Virus record (IMG/VR): IMGVR_UViG_3300046060_000019
Span: 1 to 47,161 of that record
From: a virus
Direction: 5' to 3' (one strand)
Length of the DNA: 47,161 bases
The stretch's first letter is position 1; each line of letters opens with the position of its first letter. The notes beneath the pieces are model-generated. The model had not been told where the DNA came from. It saw nothing but the letters and a program-made list of their open reading frames with translations, and ran no database searches. Below are positions 5,989 to 47,161 of this stretch, piece after piece. A program made the position numbers and the translations under genes.

Positions 5989-6326
5989 GAACCACCCCCG
6001 TCGTCGCCGTCGCCGTTCGTGTCGCTGTCGGTGGTGGCGTCCTCGCCGTTCGTGTCGCTGTCGGTGGTGGCGTCCTCGTCGTCCGTGTCGCCCACCAGTT
6101 CGTCCCGCGTCGGGCCGGACTGGTTGGTGTTGATAGCGGAAGACGGCTGTTCAGTCTCGCCGTCGTGGTCCTCGGGCGGGTCTTCCCACCCACGGGTCCG
6201 GTAGAACCGTTCCAGTTCCGCCGGAACCTCGTACATGCCGGGACCCGCATAGCGGGTGTCCGACTGGTAGTCCACGAATTCGGCGTCGTTCGGCCACTGA
6301 AGCGTGACCGTGGATTTTCCAGACAT
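5979..6326 (-). CDS. Acidic repeat protein downstream of the capsid gene (115 aa)
   Basis: Track ORF containing the duplicated 11-aa unit GEDATTDSDTN. Confidence 0.65.
   Translation of the reverse strand: MSGKSTVTLQWPNDAEFVDYQSDTRYAGPGMYEVPAELERFYRTRGWEDPPEDHDGETEQPSSAINTNQSGPTRDELVGDTDDEDATTDSDTNGEDATTDSDTNGDGDDGGGSGN
6011..6076. repeat. Perfect 33-bp tandem duplication (2 copies)
   Basis: cgccgttcgtgtcgctgtcggtggtggcgtcct occurs at 6011..6043 and again at 6044..6076. Confidence 0.85.
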
Positions 6327-9788: not shown

Positions 9789-9837
9789 GTTCAGTCCCCC
9801 GCACTAACCGATAGACAAACAGCCCCCATATACGACC

Positions 9838-9848
9838 GTGACGCTGGA
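9838..9848 (-). promoter_or_regulatory. Class A promoter-proximal motif
   Basis: gtgacgctgga, followed on the minus strand by GGTCGTATATGG (TATA-like). It lies 49 nt from the GTG at 9788. Confidence 0.55.
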
Positions 9849-9889
9849 AGTAATAGAACGTTAAAACGGCGTATGGGGCTGATAACTGA

Positions 9890-16981: not shown

Positions 16982-17016
16982 ATCCGACAGAATCAGCCAC
17001 GTCCGCTTAACCGAAC

Positions 17017-17027
17017 GTGACGCTGGA
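17017..17027 (-). promoter_or_regulatory. Class A promoter-proximal motif
   Basis: gtgacgctgga, with a 35-nt spacer to the portal ATG at 16981. Confidence 0.6.
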
Positions 17028-17036
17028 ACAGTCAGC

Positions 17037-20822: not shown

Positions 20823-20857
20823 GTCAGACACTCGTATGCTGAACGACTTATCCCACC

Positions 20858-20868
20858 GTGACGCTGGA
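20858..20868 (-). promoter_or_regulatory. Class A promoter-proximal motif
   Basis: gtgacgctgga, followed on the minus strand by GGTGGGATAAGT. A 35-nt spacer leads to the ATG at 20822. Confidence 0.6.
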
Positions 20869-21209
20869 AGGTGGACGCCCCGCCCGGAACGCGCCGACGG
20901 CGACGGTGAACGAGCGAACAGCCACGTTGGACAGTCCGAATTTGTTTCCTGACACTCGGGACCGACCCCCGCCGGGTAGCGCGTCGCCACGGAATAGCCG
21001 GTTTGTGGGCGTGTCGCTGGGCGTCGTTGGTGAAAGTAGGAAAAGGCCCCGCCGGGCGTGTTATTCCCGGTGGGGCGTGGTCACGAAGGGTCCGTGACGG
21101 GACGGTGGGGGACACCCGTGGTCGCCTTCCCACCCACTCGGTCCATGGTGGACCTATCGGCTTTTAGCCGATATGCGGGGTCACCAGACTTCCACGGCGT
21201 TACGTCCCA

Positions 21210-21593: not shown

Positions 21594-21738
21594 CATGCTG
21601 TCGGTCGTCAGGCCGGTGTTACGAGCGGGGGTCACCCCAGTTCGGCCCGCTGGGGTGGGCTATTCCCGTGGTGATAATCAACTGGTGGTCGTCCATGCGG
21701 TACGTGACTGGTTACCACTCGGGAACTATTGAACGACC

Positions 21739-21749
21739 GTGACGCTGGA
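21739..21749 (-). promoter_or_regulatory. Class A promoter-proximal motif
   Basis: gtgacgctgga lies 5 nt after the stop at 21754. It is followed by GGTCGTTCAATAG and only a 25-codon ORF (21696..21619) before the non-coding region. Confidence 0.55.
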
Positions 21750-21753
21750 AGTT

Positions 21754-27787: not shown

Positions 27788-27803
27788 GTTGTCGAACCTC
27801 TTT

Positions 27804-27990
27804 GACACCGTTCCGGTCCCGGTGTCGGGGACACCGCCCCGCCGACGGCGACGTGGTCCTGATTACTGGGGTAATCACGGACAACCACCAGCGTGGTTGC
27901 CTCGGTGAACAACTTTCGTTGTTTCACGTCGCCGTCCGGCGGTTTAGCGGTCTATAAACTGTATGGCGCTATACGAATTCGGGACCCGGA
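27804..27990 (-). promoter_or_regulatory. Structured leader or intergenic region with four hairpins and TATA-like boxes
   Basis: Hairpins at 27804..27826 (class B type GACACCG/CGGTGTC), 27860..27877, 27882..27899 and 27907..27924. TATA-like TTTATAG and GTATAGC lie at about 27951..27976. Confidence 0.55.
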
Positions 27991-32936: not shown

Positions 32937-32940
32937 AGTT

Positions 32941-32995
32941 CTGTCAGGCAACACCGTTTACACCCGGCGTCGAGGTGACCGCCCCGTCACTGAAC
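32941..32995 (-). promoter_or_regulatory. Class B conserved leader (GTGACGGGGCGGT box plus ACGCCG...CGGTGT hairpin)
   Basis: The minus strand reads GTGACGGGGCGGTCACCTCGACGCCGGGTGTAAACGGTGTTGCCTGACAGAACT then ATG. Confidence 0.55.
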
Positions 32996-33026
32996 AAGAG
33001 CTGTTCAGGGACGGTGTGACGGAAAA

Positions 33027-33200
33027 CGGACAGGGCGGGATTTGAACCCGCGAAGCGACTTCCCCGGCGCTTCCGAAGGACACAAGGACAGTGTTGTCCC
33101 GGCGGGGGTGTCCGCCGGTCCCTCGTACCACGTCCCCGGTTCCGCCGCCAAAGCCCGTTGATGAAAACGGGCCGCCTTGTCCAGACTCGGCCACCTGTCC
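33027..33200 (-). tRNA. Oversized tRNA-like gene (174 nt), possibly an intron-containing class II tRNA
   Basis: Acceptor GGACAGG/CCTGTCC (7 bp, perfect). D-arm GCC-GAGTCTGGACAA-GGC. T-arm GCGGG-TTCAAAT-CCCGC. Discriminator G followed by TTTT. About 90 extra nt carry internal hairpins. Confidence 0.5.
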
Positions 33201-33859: not shown

Positions 33860-34273
33860 TCAGTTCCCGTTTTCGTGCGGGTTCGGGGCCGGGTCCAGTT
33901 CGCCCGATACGAGCATTTCAACGAAGTCGTCCATCGTAAACCAGCCGTTCAGCGGGTTCAGCGGGTGTCCTTCGTCGGGGTGAATCCCGTCGGGGTACAC
34001 CAGTGCGACTTCGCCGTCACCAAAGCCGTCGTCGTCCCGATAGTCGCTGTTCGGGCGGTAGCTGACGCCGTCGAACAGGAACACGTCGCCGTCGTACCGG
34101 AAGAACGTCTTCCCGGCTTCCATGGTCACTGTCGCGCCGGTCCGGTCTGACGACGGGCCGGGCGTGGTGATTGTTCGGTAACTGTTCGGCTGTTCGGCGT
34201 GGTCAGTGGTGACGCGAAGTTGAATCTTGTTTCCAAGAATTCCGACCACGTCACCGGGGTTGTGGTCAACCAT
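33860..34273 (-). CDS. Hypothetical protein (137 aa)
   Basis: Track ORF, preceded by a class B leader. Confidence 0.55.
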   Translation of the reverse strand: MVDHNPGDVVGILGNKIQLRVTTDHAEQPNSYRTITTPGPSSDRTGATVTMEAGKTFFRYDGDVFLFDGVSYRPNSDYRDDDGFGDGEVALVYPDGIHPDEGHPLNPLNGWFTMDDFVEMLVSGELDPAPNPHENGN

Positions 34274-34281
34274 AGGTCGTT

Positions 34282-34335
34282 CAACACCGTTTGCGCCCGG
34301 TGTCAGGGCGACCGTCCCGCCACGAACGAGCGTGA
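34282..34335 (-). promoter_or_regulatory. Class B conserved leader
   Basis: The minus strand reads TTCACGCTCGTTCGTGGCGGGACGGTCGCCCTGACACCGGGCGCAAACGGTGTTGAACGACCT then ATG. Confidence 0.55.
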
Positions 34336-34371
34336 AGCCCGCCGTGACGGTTAGACGGATAACGCCGCTGT

Positions 34372-34503
34372 TCAGTCCTTCGACTGGGCCACGCCGTCAA
34401 AGGTGTTGACTGAACAGCCGCCGTTCGGACACGTTACGTCAGTGTCACCATAGTCGGCGTGAAGCGCCGTCTGACAGTTAGGACAGTAGGTCAGCACTGT
34501 CAC
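34372..34503 (-). CDS. Mini zinc-ribbon protein (43 aa, GTG start)
   Basis: (M)TVLTYCPNCQTALHADYGDTDVTCPNGGCSVNTFDGVAQSKD, with a GTGA overlap with the upstream stop. Confidence 0.4.
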   Translation of the reverse strand: MTVLTYCPNCQTALHADYGDTDVTCPNGGCSVNTFDGVAQSKD

Positions 34504-34625
34504 CAGCCCCGTGGACCCTTCCCGTCCATGGCGGCGTCCGCACGTTCATGGTCACGGAACCGCGGCGCGGGGTTGTTCTTCGCCTGTTCGTTAGCCGTCG
34601 GAACGTCGTTAGTCTCGTTGGTCAT
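34500..34625 (-). CDS. Small hypothetical protein (41 aa)
   Basis: MTNETNDVPTANEQAKNNPAPRFRDHERADAAMDGKGPRGW, with an ATGA overlap with the upstream stop. Confidence 0.35.
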   Translation of the reverse strand: MTNETNDVPTANEQAKNNPAPRFRDHERADAAMDGKGPRGW

Positions 34626-34945
34626 GGTCGGCGGCGGTTGAAGAACTGAAGGTCAAACCCGAAGTGGGGTTCCACCGTCCAGTTCTCGTTTCTGAAGCCG
34701 GTGACTTCCGGGTCGCTGACGCGCCCCAGTTCGCCCGTGAACAGGCTTTCGCCGCCGGTCAGGTGAACAGCCCACTTGTACGGGCCGCCTTCCCATGCGA
34801 CGCCCCACGCGCCGTTCTCGCGGGGATTGTCTTCGGGCCGGTACAAGTGGGCGTCGGCGTCCAGTTCTTCGGTCAGGTACTTGTGAAGGCGTTTCGCCGC
34901 GCTCGCCGCTGTCTCGTATTCGCTTAGGTCCAGTGGGTCGGACAT
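34622..34945 (-). CDS. Hypothetical protein (107 aa)
   Basis: Track ORF. Confidence 0.55.
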   Translation of the reverse strand: MSDPLDLSEYETAASAAKRLHKYLTEELDADAHLYRPEDNPRENGAWGVAWEGGPYKWAVHLTGGESLFTGELGRVSDPEVTGFRNENWTVEPHFGFDLQFFNRRRP

Positions 34946-35046
34946 GGGCAGTGTCGAAGGGGCGCTTCAAGGTCGTACTCGTTTAGGTCGTCGCGTTGCT
35001 GGAAGGGTTCGTCAACGGCGTCGGGGTAAGTCTCGTTGTCGTACAT
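34924..35046 (-). CDS. Small acidic protein (40 aa)
   Basis: MYDNETYPDAVDEPFQQRDDLNEYDLEAPL... It fills an otherwise empty 106-nt gap and overlaps the next gene by 22 nt. Confidence 0.3.
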   Translation of the reverse strand: MYDNETYPDAVDEPFQQRDDLNEYDLEAPLRHCPCPTHWT

Positions 35047-35051
35047 GCGAA

Positions 35052-35441
35052 TCACCGAACAAGTCGGTACGTCAGCCGGGGAAGTTCGTCGTCGTCCAGT
35101 TCGTCAGCGTCCATGTCGTTGTCCAGTTCACCGGATTCCAGAACGTTCACCTTCAGTCCAGCGTGTCCAGCGATAGCGGACACGTCGGTGGGAATTGAAC
35201 GCTTCCCGGGTTCCTGAACCACGGTGACGGCGTACAGAACGCCGTCTTCGTTCTGGAACACCGGGGTCAATTCTATGGATTCAATCGGCCCCATAGACCC
35301 GCCTTTCTCGTTCAGAATGGCGTTTCGTGCGGCCACCAGCCCAATTTCAGGCTGGAATTCGTCGGGGAAACTGTCTCGGTCGGTTCGCGCTTCGTTGACG
35401 TACTGTTCAAATTCGTCGGCTTCGACAGTATGCGATAGCAT
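35052..35441 (-). CDS. Hypothetical acidic protein (129 aa), the first gene after the large non-coding region
   Basis: Track ORF 35052..35750 trimmed to the ATG at 35441 (MLSHTVEADEF...). The basic N-terminal part of the track ORF lies in the structured non-coding DNA. Confidence 0.55.
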   Translation of the reverse strand: MLSHTVEADEFEQYVNEARTDRDSFPDEFQPEIGLVAARNAILNEKGGSMGPIESIELTPVFQNEDGVLYAVTVVQEPGKRSIPTDVSAIAGHAGLKVNVLESGELDNDMDADELDDDELPRLTYRLVR

Positions 35442-35474
35442 GGCTGTTTCTCGGCGCTGACGTGGCCGCTGACG

Positions 35475-35530
35475 GACACCAGTTGTCCATGGTGTCAGTG
35501 GAACCGTCCCGTCACGAAACGAGCATGGAC
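35475..35530 (-). promoter_or_regulatory. Class B conserved leader
   Basis: The minus strand reads CATGCTCGTTTCGTGACGGGACGGTTCCACTGACACCATGGACAACTGGTGTC (7-bp hairpin GACACCA/TGGTGTC). Confidence 0.5.
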
Positions 35531-36373
35531 GCCGTTCGTCCAGTGGCCCATGTCGTGACGGTTTGACGGTAGAATGAACTAACGCACGCGACGCTTCCCG
35601 ATTCAGGGCGTTGTCCTTTCGGGAAGCGAACGGCCCAGTCGCCTGTAACAGCGTGAAGGCCATTCCACGACACCGGGTGAAGTTCCGCCTTTCGTGGGCG
35701 TTCCACTTCGACCGGACCCGACGGTCCGCGCTGGGGGTGGCGTCAGTCACCGTGCGGGGGCGCTGTCCCGCGTCGGCGTCGTTTCTCTCGTCGCCGCGTG
35801 GCCCCGTTCGACTGGGGTGTGAACCACGCGGCTGGACTGGTGTCCCCCGTCACCCGCTCGCGCCGAAGCGCGTCGGTACACTGGGGTGTCTCGGGGCGTG
35901 ACGCCCGAAGGAACCAGCGGGACCGCCTGTCGTCGCCCCCGAGTGGTCGAACGGCCCAGCATGGCCGTGGGTCCCGCACTCGGGGGAACCGCCGTGAATT
36001 GTGGCCGCACGGCGGAACGGGGGCGAACAGGTGAACGCTCGTCAGGCAGGGGGCGCGTCAGCGCCCCGATACATGACACCCTTTCGAGAGTAGCCACTTA
36101 TATCTTTCCCAATTGTTCCACTGGGCGTATTAGGGTTAGTCACAAGAGCGGATTACCGGCCCGTTCCACCGACCGGCGTATGACAGGCGAAAGCGGTTAG
36201 GCGGTGAATAATCCGCCGTTCAGCGTCTTAGTAACCTAATAATCAAGTGCCACCGGGCCGTCGAACCCAGTGCGGGCGGCGGCGGTGAACGCTTGTCAGG
36301 CAACACCTTTCGTCCCGTGAACGCGGACGAACTCTTGCCGCCACCCCCAATTCAGAATCAGACAGCGACCGCG
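35531..36373. other. ~840-nt non-coding, highly structured control region (candidate origin and/or large ncRNA)
   Basis: There is no acidic ORF. Tetraloop-capped GC helices lie at 35859..35872, 35593..35627, 36050..36067 and 36200..36217. An 18-mer repeat occurs at 36031 and 36285. An AT-rich core at 36085..36250 carries an ORB-like box. Confidence 0.6.
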
Positions 36374-38098
36374 TCAGACAATCCTGACGTTCTCGTATGT
36401 CTCGCCGTTCTCGGCGGACACATTCACTGTCCCGTCGTCGTTGACCGCCGTGACTTCGCCCACGACCGGGTCAAACCCACCCACGACATTAGAACCGCCG
36501 CTGGTGGCGGAATTTCGGCGCTGGATAATCTGATTCACCGCCGCCTGTCCGATAGATTCCGTGGCCGTCGGACGTTTGGTCCCGAATTCCACGTTCGTCT
36601 TCGCTTCGTCCGGGGCCACCTGATATTCCACTTTCTGAACAGTGAAGGTGTTGTCCGTCACTTTTTGCGGAATCCCGCGGCTGGGGTAATATATTTCAGC
36701 CCGGTCGCCGGGGCGAACGTCCATTATTCCGGCGACTGGGGCGGTTCCGCTGACGCTCGTTCGGTACGCCTTATCAAATACGTCATGGGCGACAGCCAAC
36801 GCCTGATACCAACCCGTAATCTGGGGGTCCGACACACTGGTGGCGCGAAGGTCTATTTCGTCTATGTCGTTGATTCCCCCAGCGAGACTATCCTTCCACT
36901 TCCATGTGTATTTGTCACTGGTATCGGTGGGGAACACCCCTTTTTCATGGGGATTTTCGTAGCCCCACATAGTGTAAACAGACCCGTTATACGCCCATGT
37001 CCAGACATTCACGCCGCCCTGACCGGAAACCTGAACGTAGTTCTTCACGCCGTCTATATTCCGCTTCGCTATCGGTCGGATTACATTCTGACCTTCAGTG
37101 AATGTGTACCGACTGGGTTTGCGGGTCTGTTCCGGGCGAACAACGAGCGTGTCCGTGCTATCCCTGACGAAGTATTCCCACGGCGTCCCCCCGTCCAGCG
37201 ATTGAATATAAGAGATAATACGGTTAAGAAAGTCCCGGGTAGAATAATCCTGTTGGGCGCTGAAGTTCCAGTCGTTCTCTACATAATTGTATATATTAGC
37301 CGATAGCGCCACAGTCGCGGACCCGGTCAGGTCAGGAACGTTCGTGTTGATACTGTTCACTTCCGCCCACAACTGATTCCCACCAGACAGCGCCAAATTC
37401 ACGGCGTTGGTCCCGTAAGCTTCAACAGGGCCGTCACCCGGTGGAAGGTCCAGTGACGCTTTGACAGTGTTTCCGTCAGCGTCCGCCCCGGTTATATCCA
37501 GCGTGTACGTCGCGCCCGTGTTGTTCTCGTAACCGTCAATCCGAAGCTCGGCCTGTTTCCCCCGGTTGTCGTTGACAGTTTCGTGTTGGTCGAAGGTATC
37601 AGAATTTGCGTCGAAGCGTCCGTAGTGGGAAACGGTGACCATTCCGAAGTCGGTTGCTTCCGAGAACAGGCCGTATTCGGCCTTTGCGGCGTCAGCGTCA
37701 TACGAGATACCCCGGATTTTGGACGGTCCCGTGTCCACGACGCCGTCAATAACGTCCCAAATGTTGTCTTCGTTGTACCGCCCCACCACCGTGCTGTCGT
37801 CCAGACGGCCTTCAGGCGTCCGTGCGTCCAGCGTGACGACGGGTTCCGTGTCGTCGTCGTCCACGTCGTCCACGAAGCCGCTGAATACCACGGTGTCGTT
37901 TCCGTCGGTCAGCGTCACGTCTATGTCCGCTTGTTCTTCCAGCGCGTGCGGGCGCTGACTGGTATCCAGTTTGACGGTGACGCTGTTCGGGTTTCCTTGT
38001 TCTCGCGTGTACGTTATTTCAATTACGTCACCAGAAACGTCGCCTTCAGGGCTGACGGTGACAGTCCAGTCAACCGAGTACGCTTGTGTGGCGGACAT
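36374..38098 (-). CDS. Tail tip / baseplate protein candidate (574 aa)
   Basis: It is the last gene of the tail module. The N-terminal pattern (VDWTVTVSPEGDVSGDVIEITY...VVFSGFVDDVD) resembles hub or Tal-type N-domains. Confidence 0.45.
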   Translation of the reverse strand: MSATQAYSVDWTVTVSPEGDVSGDVIEITYTREQGNPNSVTVKLDTSQRPHALEEQADIDVTLTDGNDTVVFSGFVDDVDDDDTEPVVTLDARTPEGRLDDSTVVGRYNEDNIWDVIDGVVDTGPSKIRGISYDADAAKAEYGLFSEATDFGMVTVSHYGRFDANSDTFDQHETVNDNRGKQAELRIDGYENNTGATYTLDITGADADGNTVKASLDLPPGDGPVEAYGTNAVNLALSGGNQLWAEVNSINTNVPDLTGSATVALSANIYNYVENDWNFSAQQDYSTRDFLNRIISYIQSLDGGTPWEYFVRDSTDTLVVRPEQTRKPSRYTFTEGQNVIRPIAKRNIDGVKNYVQVSGQGGVNVWTWAYNGSVYTMWGYENPHEKGVFPTDTSDKYTWKWKDSLAGGINDIDEIDLRATSVSDPQITGWYQALAVAHDVFDKAYRTSVSGTAPVAGIMDVRPGDRAEIYYPSRGIPQKVTDNTFTVQKVEYQVAPDEAKTNVEFGTKRPTATESIGQAAVNQIIQRRNSATSGGSNVVGGFDPVVGEVTAVNDDGTVNVSAENGETYENVRIV

Positions 38099-39641: not shown

Positions 39642-39677
39642 TACGACGGACAAGCCACCTGTTCCCCTTCAACGAGT

Positions 39678-39688
39678 GTGACGCTGGA
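39678..39688 (-). promoter_or_regulatory. Class A promoter-proximal motif (inside the tail module)
   Basis: gtgacgctgga. The downstream leader is nearly identical to the one at 449..494. Confidence 0.6.
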
Positions 39689-39698
39689 AGCGAAGGGG

Positions 39699-47106: not shown

Positions 47107-47161
47107 ACTGTTCTAACTGTTCTTCCGGGTCGTCTTCGTCACCCCCCACCAGCATACCCTT
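47099..47161 (-). CDS. C-terminal end of the chaperone ORF begun at 448 (continuation across the circular junction)
   Basis: Reads ...KGMLVGGDEDDPEEQLEQFR*. Positions 47107..47161 duplicate 1..55. Confidence 0.6.
   Translation of the reverse strand, partial: KGMLVGGDEDDPEEQLEQFR
47107..47161. repeat. Terminal direct repeat copy 2 (identical to 1..55)
   Basis: Exact 55-nt identity with the window start. Confidence 0.9.

Follow-up and report, generated by a model that had tools for sequence, protein, structure and literature searches.

What occupies the gene-free stretch of hundreds of nucleotides (nt) that separates tail genes from early genes in a haloarchaeal tailed virus? We addressed this question for IMG/VR record IMGVR_UViG_3300046060_000019, the genome of such a virus, whose 47,161 nt were analysed as a whole (hereafter, the window). 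An earlier note, made from the letters alone, had described positions 35531–36373 as a non-coding region between late and early genes that could contain the replication origin, the early promoter-operator complex and/or a large structured RNA. The last of these ideas is strongly supported by covariation in three virus clades, and it is highly probable that the region is a large structured RNA unit. The gene-free gap, which is slightly longer than first described (35442–36373), is non-coding and has no conserved reading frame. It probably corresponds to a transcribed RNA unit on the minus strand that heads the early gene module.

The gap and its RNA core

The gap extends, in the direction of transcription, from the stop codon of the last tail-module gene (36374–38098), which encodes a 574-amino-acid (aa) homologue of HHTV-1 gp40 and marks the upstream edge of the unit, to the ATG at 35441 of the first early gene (35052–35441), which encodes an acidic protein of 129 aa. 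Of all non-coding regions of the genome, this gap is the largest, and it is located at a module boundary. HHTV-1 (Madisaviridae) is the nearest described virus, with tail proteins that are 45–47% identical. All positions are those of the window, and features lie on the minus strand, which holds all long open reading frames (ORFs), unless the plus strand is named. The gap is organised as a single unit on this strand, the same as that of all the genes, and consists of a post-tail hairpin, a promoter resembling the transcription factor B recognition element and TATA box (BRE/TATA-like), a core of about 500 nt and a leader of about 110 nt.

In a large protein collection, 54 homologues of the tail protein were identified, including HHTV1_40. 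At the corresponding position, the contigs of the closest homologues (58–78% identity; 50% for locus L010, the relatives being designated here by such numbers) carried a gene-free stretch of 760–1440 nt. Long invariant blocks run through the alignment of these stretches, in contrast to a flanking protein of only 50–78% identity, and the gene that follows the unit differs among viruses, with at least six unrelated proteins at that position. Stop codons were found in all six frames of the gap in the window and in ten homologues. Substitutions in the window-clade alignment exhibited no 3-base periodicity (p = 0.25–0.97), and most gap lengths were not multiples of three (36/102/80 by remainder modulo 3). 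As the earlier note had remarked, there is no halophile-like ORF: the longest ORFs of the gap are basic (Lys + Arg fraction 0.11–0.27, Asp + Glu at most 0.16), as opposed to the acidic genuine proteins of the virus.

Covariation over homologous regions, which the earlier note had proposed as a check, was then evaluated for the core (35575–36073), together with fold z-scores. RNAalifold predicted 154 pairs from ten sequences, 37 of them with compensatory double changes. A curated structure based on 11 sequences comprises 128 pairs in 23 helices, with 93.5% paired. Both sides had changed in 44 of these 128 pairs, versus 20.8 ± 2.8 in column shuffles (0 of 500 reached the observed value), and the number of such pairs fell to 2–15 when the partners were slid by 1–3 columns. 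In the slid-partner controls for the curated core, the leader, and helix H1 with pseudoknot PK1, 33–48% of positions were paired. The RNA was assigned to the minus strand, since several invariant G-U pairs are possible only in that reading and the single-sequence fold gave z = −7.19 on the minus strand versus −3.76 on the plus strand.

Overall, the core is predicted to contain helices H0 to H8 and two pseudoknots, PK1 and PK2, with the best support for H1, H2, H4, H5, H6, H7, and H8. The 5′-terminal hairpin H0 (36050–36067; GGGGCGC-UGAC-GCGCCCC, GGGGCGCUGACGCGCCCC), already noticed from the sequence as a GC helix with a small loop, is a conserved element whose pairs are kept through changes in L004, L009, and L010. 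Helix H1 (35989–36015) is formed by CCGCCGUG and CACGGCGG around the loop CGGCCACAAUU; this loop is the same in all clades, except for a single substitution in L166 (GGACACAAT). In 18 sequences from three clades, all eight of its pairs were compensated and 99.3% were paired. The next segment (35919–35986) contains H2 (35986–35977/35945–35936; 5 of 10 pairs compensated) and PK1, in which the H2 loop GGGACC (35975–35970) pairs with GGUCCC (35924–35919), located after the motif ACAGGCGG; six of the seven PK1 pairs were compensated across the three clades. Taken together, H1 and PK1 were 97% paired, with 14 of 15 pairs compensated.

The 3′ half of the core (35592–35831), defined by curated covariation, comprises H5 (35831–35824/35801–35794; 6 of 8 pairs compensated), H6 (35781–35774/35675–35668; 3 of 8, 100% paired), H7 (35661–35657/35636–35632; 2 of 5, 100% paired), and H8 (35628–35620/35600–35592), which covaries in L006, L019, and L016. 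H8 corresponds to the CGGGAAGC/GCTTCCCG hairpin (35593–35627) of the earlier note. PK2 connects the two ends of the core: CGUU (36037–36034), within the second copy of an 18-mer repeat described below, pairs with AACG (35612–35609) in the H8 loop. This pseudoknot has four pairs, two of them compensated, and is 100% paired.

Every motif listed in the earlier note is present at its coordinates, and not all of them belong to the conserved structure. The CGCGC-CGAA-GCGCG hairpin (35859–35872) and the GTGACGGGGGACACC box (35839–35853) lie in a lineage-specific insertion (approximately 35843–35889) found only in the window, in L005 and, in part, in L007. Similarly, the long-range complementarity between CCGTTCGAC and GTCGAACGG holds only in the window and L005, and this pairing was dropped. 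Two further candidates were rejected: a helix between the conserved CGAACGG loop and either CCCCGUUC or CCGUUCGG, which fits some lineages while the loop motif is missing in L010 and L016, and the closing helix proposed by RNAalifold (GCCUGAC..GCGU with GCGUGCGUUGGU), which exhibited no covariation and is broken in L016.

More distant viruses also carry the unit. In L162, whose tail protein is 47% identical, a 1.2-kb gap gave a weak match to H1/H2 with a hidden Markov model (HMM), and an IMG/VR search with the tail-protein alignment recovered seven HHTV-1-like loci, HHTV-1 included. The H1-loop motif GGCCACAAT, which occurs just once in the whole window, was found 450–1000 nt past the tail gene in L162, L163, L164, HHTV-1, L168, and L018. 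In the HHTV-1-like loci, the stems of H1 are fully exchanged, PK1 is formed by UGCUGCC/GGCAGCA, and the motifs ACAGGCGG and AGAAAC are retained. Their leader has diverged, with the same pseudoknot topology (GAUCCU/AGGAUC). The HHTV-1 clade alone (six sequences) yielded 110 predicted pairs, 33 of them compensatory. In L167 and L169, reverse-strand genes occupy the position of the unit, and no RNA was found there. As judged from these alignments, the predicted RNA unit is present in three clades, cultured HHTV-1 included.

The predicted promoter and upstream elements

Strong conservation starts at CAUGU(A/G), immediately before hairpin H0. Upstream of this point, the BRE/TATA-like box GGGAAAGATATAAGT (36096–36110) is conserved in position and sequence in the window clade, and corresponding boxes were found in L010 (GATTTATAC), L168 (GTCTATAAGTGG), and the HHTV-1 clade (GGGAAACAACTAAGTGG). 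In all three clades, the distance from the box to the onset of conservation is constant (about 28 nt). From this spacing we infer that the box is the promoter of the RNA, with a predicted transcription start near 36073, within CAUGUA (36070–36075). The start of the HHTV-1 RNA is likewise predicted about 25–30 nt past AACTAAGT, at about position 34,630 of its record. The suggestion of an early promoter is supported by this element, kept in sequence and position in all three clades. A scan for bacterial promoters and terminators was uninformative.

The unit begins with the post-tail hairpin (36274–36348), directly past the tail-gene stop and conserved in eight relatives. Its outer stem is formed by GG(U/C)GGCGGC and GCCGCCGCC, and its inner hairpin by UUCGUCC..GGACGAA. 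Pairing in this hairpin was assessed by eye from the alignment and not counted with a tool; the outer stem appeared to be compensated in L010 (GGGCGUCG/CGACGCCC) and in L016 (GGGG-C-GGCA/UGCC-A-CCCC). The hairpin exposes, in single-stranded form, the first copy of the repeated 18-mer (GCCUGACAAGCGUUCACC, 36301–36284). The second copy (GCCUGACGAGCGUUCACC, 36030–36047) is located at the start of the core, where its CGUU forms PK2. The repeat search extended this direct repeat to 18/19 nt (36030–36048 and 36284–36302), with one copy on each side of the promoter and both within the conserved unit, which agrees with the repeat first noticed by eye. In L016, both copies carry identical changes (GCCTGACAGCGCCACC) and the PK2 partner compensates. 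Such concerted changes suggest a common constraint on both copies, in the form of a shared protein or RNA partner.

Past the post-tail hairpin, the sequence is variable and partly AT-rich, with short AT-rich patches at 36090–36135 and 36220–36250, and ends in the palindrome CCCAGTGGAACAATTGGG followed by GGGAAAGATATAAGT. The GGCGG-TGAATAAT-CCGCC hairpin (36200–36217) of the earlier note is present in this variable part, outside the conserved structure. The imperfect palindrome CCCAGTGGAACAATTGGG (36108–36125), recognised in the alignment, abuts the promoter and is inverted in L002 and L006. It exhibited no covariation and is a candidate binding site for a regulator, with a putative role at the DNA level. 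Three or four direct repeats of the TGTTAG(G)/TTAGGG type were observed immediately 5′ of the BRE/TATA-like box in HHTV-1 (L165, 8070–8115), L163, L162, L018, and L166; these are candidate operator sites. In the window, the plus strand carries TTAGGGTTAG at 36134–36143, a TTAGGG-type repeat in inverted orientation. An operator, as formerly suggested, seems plausible in view of the concerted 18-mer changes in L016, the TTAGGG-type repeats, and the CCAGTGGAAC palindrome beside the TATA element.

Some relatives have an additional, inserted ORF of about 170–190 aa (L002, 5440–5949; L003, 4226–4735; L019, 4878–5447). It is encoded on the opposite strand, downstream of the post-tail hairpin and upstream of the promoter of the RNA, and is flanked by inverted copies of the CCAGTGGAAC element. 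The 169-aa ORF of L002 and L003 matched no Pfam family above the cut-off.

The surroundings of the unit agree with the late/early junction that had been proposed. The tape-measure and tail genes lie on its 5′ side, with the terminase and a Mu-F-like head protein further away, and small acidic early genes, an intron-containing tRNA, and a PCNA homologue lie on its 3′ side. Since genes and RNA all run in one direction, the junction is not a divergent switch. Moreover, the encoded proteins are acidic, and bases 1–55 are identical to 47107–47161, which indicates that the contig is a circular or terminally redundant assembly and represents a complete genome of about 47.1 kb. Two other repeats were observed elsewhere in the window. 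One is a perfect 31-nt direct repeat, present as two tandem copies 33 nt apart (6011–6074) in a minus-strand coding region. The other is an intergenic repeat, which contains CGTGACGCTGGAAG on the plus strand. Its six copies (470–496, 9824–9850, 17003–17029, 20844–20870, 21725–21751, and 39664–39690) lie directly upstream of late and structural minus-strand genes. This motif differs from the early leader and may serve late genes as a promoter or leader.

The repeated leader and the proposed role of the unit

An HMM of the region also matched stretches of about 100 nt further downstream in every relative. In the window, a covariance model located four copies of this leader, all on the minus strand and each just 5′ of a start codon. 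Copy 1 (35462–35574; 75.5 bits) ends 21 nt before the first early ATG, and copy 2 (34270–34363; 101.1 bits) ends at the ATG at 34273. Copy 3 (32937–33027; 70.1 bits), the 'class B' leader of the earlier note, starts from a tRNA 3′ end and ends in the shared 14-mer (GGUGUUGCCUGACA), and copy 4 (27791–27955; 46.5 bits) has a 92-nt insertion in its hairpin. The 14-mer TGTCAGGCAACACC, which had been reported to recur at 32942, gave three matches with up to two mismatches versus 0.37 expected (0 of 100 shuffles reached three). It is shared because the pseudoknot strand S2b and GCCUGACA recur in the leader copies, and is thus part of the repeated module. HHTV-1 also has four leader copies, which fill its early intergenic gaps; the window-clade covariance model (R1) misses the diverged leaders of the HHTV-1 clade, and an HMM built from that clade finds them.

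The leader is predicted to consist of a long hairpin (P1, CCGUC/GACGG; an AAA bulge; P2, CCGUCACG/CGUGACGG; and a variable P3) followed by an H-type pseudoknot, in which the loop of stem S1 (UCCA/UGGA), GACACC, pairs with GGUGUC (S2) past an A-rich linker. In an alignment of 22 copies, 95.7% were paired and 10 of the 29 pairs had changed on both sides, values reached by 0–1 of 500 shuffles. The third pseudoknot loop is A-rich, and the leader 3′ end lies 0–33 nt upstream of the start codon. No TATA-like block was found in the leader alignment. Sequestration of the Shine-Dalgarno sequence by S2 was considered as a general rule and rejected: the spacing is variable, and the Shine-Dalgarno-like motif GAGG(U/A) is separate from the pseudoknot and located outside it.

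Leaders are often associated with tRNAs. A tRNA is directly followed by a leader in the window, L002, L004, and L005, and in L164 the core and leader 1 are separated by a tRNA. In the window, the tRNA gene (33027–33200) has a class-II-like D arm and an insertion of about 100 nt (an intron and/or a long variable arm). It was missed by ARAGORN and the Rfam gathering filters, and the permissive Rfam tRNA model gave 34.6 bits (gathering threshold, 29). The tRNA of L164 (3539–3613) is canonical (57.5 bits). Neither ARAGORN nor the Rfam tRNA model detected a tRNA or transfer-messenger RNA in 35442–36373, the nearest tRNA being that at 33027–33200. Across the variable region and the promoter (36062–36209), the leader model also gave a weak match (14.4 bits, E = 0.03). 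Resemblance to the leader hairpin was noted in parts of the upstream region and of the core (GAGAAAC and the H6 stem), and duplication of leader modules may account for the growth of the entire unit.

The reading that we favour, tentatively and as one that falls a little short of probable, is that the core and leader form the structured 5′ domain of the early primary transcript and act in cis. Transcription would start near 36073 from the BRE/TATA-type promoter (36110–36096), and the first 500 nt or so would form a compact core, in which ten or more helices have covariation support and two or more pseudoknots are present. In the window clade, no oligo-U terminator was found between the core and the leader, and transcription would continue into the leader of about 110 nt, which ends just before the first early ATG. 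The recurrence of the leader 5′ of gene blocks, repeatedly 3′ of a tRNA, suggests that the early region is expressed as long precursor transcripts. After processing, the early mRNAs would begin with these leaders as structured 5′ ends, which would protect them from decay and/or present the start codon for translation initiation. As an enlarged and stable 5′-terminal domain, the core would have a general function, not tied to one gene.

Several points weigh against this cis-acting leader. The promoter, the start site, and the RNA ends are predictions, and a pseudoknotted, highly conserved domain of 500 nt is far larger than known cis-acting leaders. As the closing helix is unsupported, the global fold is incomplete in its outermost topology. 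The invariant 18-mer flanks the promoter and may exert its effect on DNA. Finally, the tRNA located between core and leader in L164 implies that the core need not stay attached to the mRNA, and this arrangement, together with the invariant single-stranded motifs, fits a trans-acting RNA as well as a leader.

The main rival, possible if rather unlikely, is that the core is a stand-alone viral non-coding RNA, similar to the phage-borne GOLLD and ROOL RNAs, that is released from the early transcript and acts in trans, with only the leader acting in cis. Acting on a host or viral partner, such an RNA might, for example, be the scaffold of a ribonucleoprotein (RNP), divert host defence as a decoy, work as a ribozyme, or assemble itself into a particle. 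A length of about 500 nt, at least two pseudoknots, and single-stranded motifs that are invariant across clades (GGCCACAAU, ACAGGCGG, and AGAAAC) would suit this role. Processing of the L164 tRNA by RNase P and RNase Z would free the core, and the downstream gene varies. Moreover, GOLLD and ROOL have been reported next to viral tRNAs, and the core also adjoins viral tRNAs. However, the missing terminator in the window clade and the fact that a leader and then a gene always follow directly after the core argue against it, as does the fact that none of the Rfam models of GOLLD, ROOL, OLE, or any other family matched. A bolder proposal, which we consider conceivable and somewhat improbable, would make the core the founding member of a class of large, functional, pseudoknotted RNAs that is new and specific to archaeal tailed viruses. 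The core would be a ribozyme or an RNP/scaffold made at the onset of infection. It could, for example, process or cap early pre-mRNA, or hijack or decoy a host machine; the leaders, acting in cis, would then be smaller relatives of the core that mark where processed early mRNAs begin.

Other readings and comparison with known systems

A replication origin, either of the Orc1/Cdc6 type or primed by a structured, promoter-driven transcript as in ColE1 RNA II or T4 R-loops, is quite unlikely to explain the region, and this suggestion of the earlier note gained no positive evidence. The formal likeness to ColE1 RNA II and T4 R-loop transcripts is that of a structured RNA, about 550 nt long and driven by a promoter, within non-coding DNA; unlike them, the RNA described here has no G-rich skew and is followed by translated genes. 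Cumulative GC skew does not turn at the region, which yields no G-rich transcript. As in haloarchaeal Orc1/Cdc6 origins, the intergenic region is large (the largest of the genome, at the module boundary), with the AT-rich patches described above and one CCAGTGGAAC element that resembles the core of an origin recognition box (ORB); in addition, the virus has a gene for PCNA, and the Pfam scan of 17 proteins revealed no initiator. However, such origins are characterised by inverted ORB repeats (20–40 bp) with a G-string around an AT-rich element, beside orc1/cdc6 (PMC3528665). The repeat search found no inverted ORB repeats in the region, the only long repeat being the direct 19-mer, and the single CCAGTGGAAC has no G-string. 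No Pfam match to Orc/Cdc6 was obtained among the 17 window proteins scanned, flanking genes included, the remaining small ORFs being outside the scan. The recurring GTGGAAC was also considered as an ORB core and rejected: all copies but one lie inside covarying RNA hairpins, and the published ORB features are lacking. Compensatory base changes are expected of RNA, not of duplex DNA sites.

It is very unlikely that the region is only a promoter-operator with a late-operon terminator, the helices being a by-product of GC-richness and close relatedness. Regulatory DNA typically has elements like the BRE/TATA-like box, the 18-mers on either side of it, the palindrome, and the TTAGGG-type repeats, and GC-rich shuffles also fold stably (mean, −275 kcal/mol). 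However, conservation reaches about 600 nt past the TATA element. H1 pairing is kept in fully different stems (CCGCCGUG/CACGGCGG, GGGAACCAG/CUGGUUUCC, and CCCCAGA/UCUGGGG), PK1 is kept both as GGGACC/GGUCCC and as UGCUGCC/GGCAGCA, and pairing drops in the slid-partner controls.

The HHTV-1 record (NC_021322) carries three hypothetical coding sequences (CDS) in the corresponding stretch (34312–35248, equal to L165 7831–8767): CDS 42 and 43 cover the RNA unit, and CDS 41 lies just upstream in the same gap; between them they overlap the putative promoter, the structured RNA, and its leader. The earlier note had held that a protein encoded across the interval in related viruses would speak against its view, and these annotations formally provide one. 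Yet gp41–43 have GTG starts and an Asp + Glu fraction of 0.05–0.09 versus 0.17 for gp40, and in L163, L162, L018, and L166 the corresponding translations run into stops and frameshifts; all three are probably spurious. The same problem was observed for a 160-aa gene call in L018 (3378–3860). That the interval encodes small proteins, as the GenBank annotation of HHTV-1 and the gene calls in L018 and L002 (169 aa, opposite strand) would have it, is extremely improbable given these interruptions, the six-frame stops, lack of 3-periodicity and mostly non-triplet gap lengths noted above, and the position of the L002 ORF in an insertion upstream of the promoter, outside the conserved RNA.

Searches for known families and for other occurrences were largely negative. 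With Rfam 15, which covers RNase P, SRP, group I/II introns, GOLLD, ROOL, OLE, HEARO, and riboswitches, there was no match in the whole window at gathering thresholds and none inside 35442–36373 at E ≤ 10, and the HHTV-1, L164, and L018 versions yielded nothing except tRNA. No similar DNA was found in GenBank phages except HHTV-1 itself, and PLSDB gave no match. In GTDB genomes, the leader pattern had 40 matches, and the four that were checked with the model, including the only haloarchaeal one, were low-scoring and chance-like. In IMG/VR, the 19-mer had 0 matches, CCTGTTCGCCCCCGTT had 5 chance matches, and the leader pattern had 102 chance matches and no true one. The core pattern and the tail-protein alignment recovered 0 relatives from metagenome_contigs, a collection that lacks the window's own contig. 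According to reviews, HHTV-1 has 74 ORFs, with neither a tRNA nor a non-coding RNA listed, and in the searchable literature and Rfam 15 we found no description of such an RNA, nor of any large structured RNA of an archaeal virus. The putative RNA is a new family, with no detectable relation to known ones.

Large RNAs (>500 nt) with complex folds are rare, and earlier examples led to new biochemistry. Here, such an RNA would be the part of the early module that is transcribed first. It is accompanied by a repeated leader with a pseudoknot, by which the early mRNAs appear to be organised, and would thus bear on the control of early expression and RNA processing in archaeal viruses, a largely unknown matter. 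As the unit is present in cultured HHTV-1, whose host is Haloarcula hispanica, these proposals are directly testable. The annotation of HHTV-1 gp42 and gp43 (with gp41 just upstream) as hypothetical proteins should be corrected.

Among known elements, PeSL-like motifs of T4-type phages consist of a TATA box and an inverted repeat, and were found before ORFs of the halovirus HGTV-1 (PMC3950731). Like the leaders, they are conserved elements repeated before many early ORFs of tailed viruses, including one haloarchaeal virus; unlike them, the leaders have no TATA-like box, and have compensation at the RNA level and a pseudoknot. A promoter box of this type is excluded at leader 3, because that leader starts at the tRNA 3′ end and leaves no room for a promoter. 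With the preQ1-II and SAM-II riboswitches, the leader shares a compact H-type pseudoknot with an A-rich third loop, 0–33 nt before a start codon. However, it has no Rfam match, its spacing to the AUG varies, GAGG(U/A) lies outside the knot, and the four copies precede unrelated genes.

HK022 put and lambda nut sites, the promoter-proximal antitermination RNAs of lambdoid phages, are also structured elements just past early promoters, with more than one per genome heading early operons, and act in cis, as the leaders may do. They are smaller (about 70 nt and two stem-loops, versus about 110 nt with a pseudoknot plus a core of 500 nt), and here the RNA polymerase is archaeal, no terminators were identified, and there is no sequence similarity. 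Finally, GOLLD and ROOL are large, ornate non-coding RNAs that occur in bacteria and their phages, whereas the present RNA belongs to an archaeal virus, matches no Rfam model, is promoter-proximal and continuous with an mRNA leader, and has a sub-module, the leader, that is repeated four times per genome. Like GOLLD and ROOL, it is virus-borne, within the range of 500–800 nt, multi-domain, predicted to form pseudoknots, located near tRNA genes as they often are, and recognised by covariation in metagenomic sequences.

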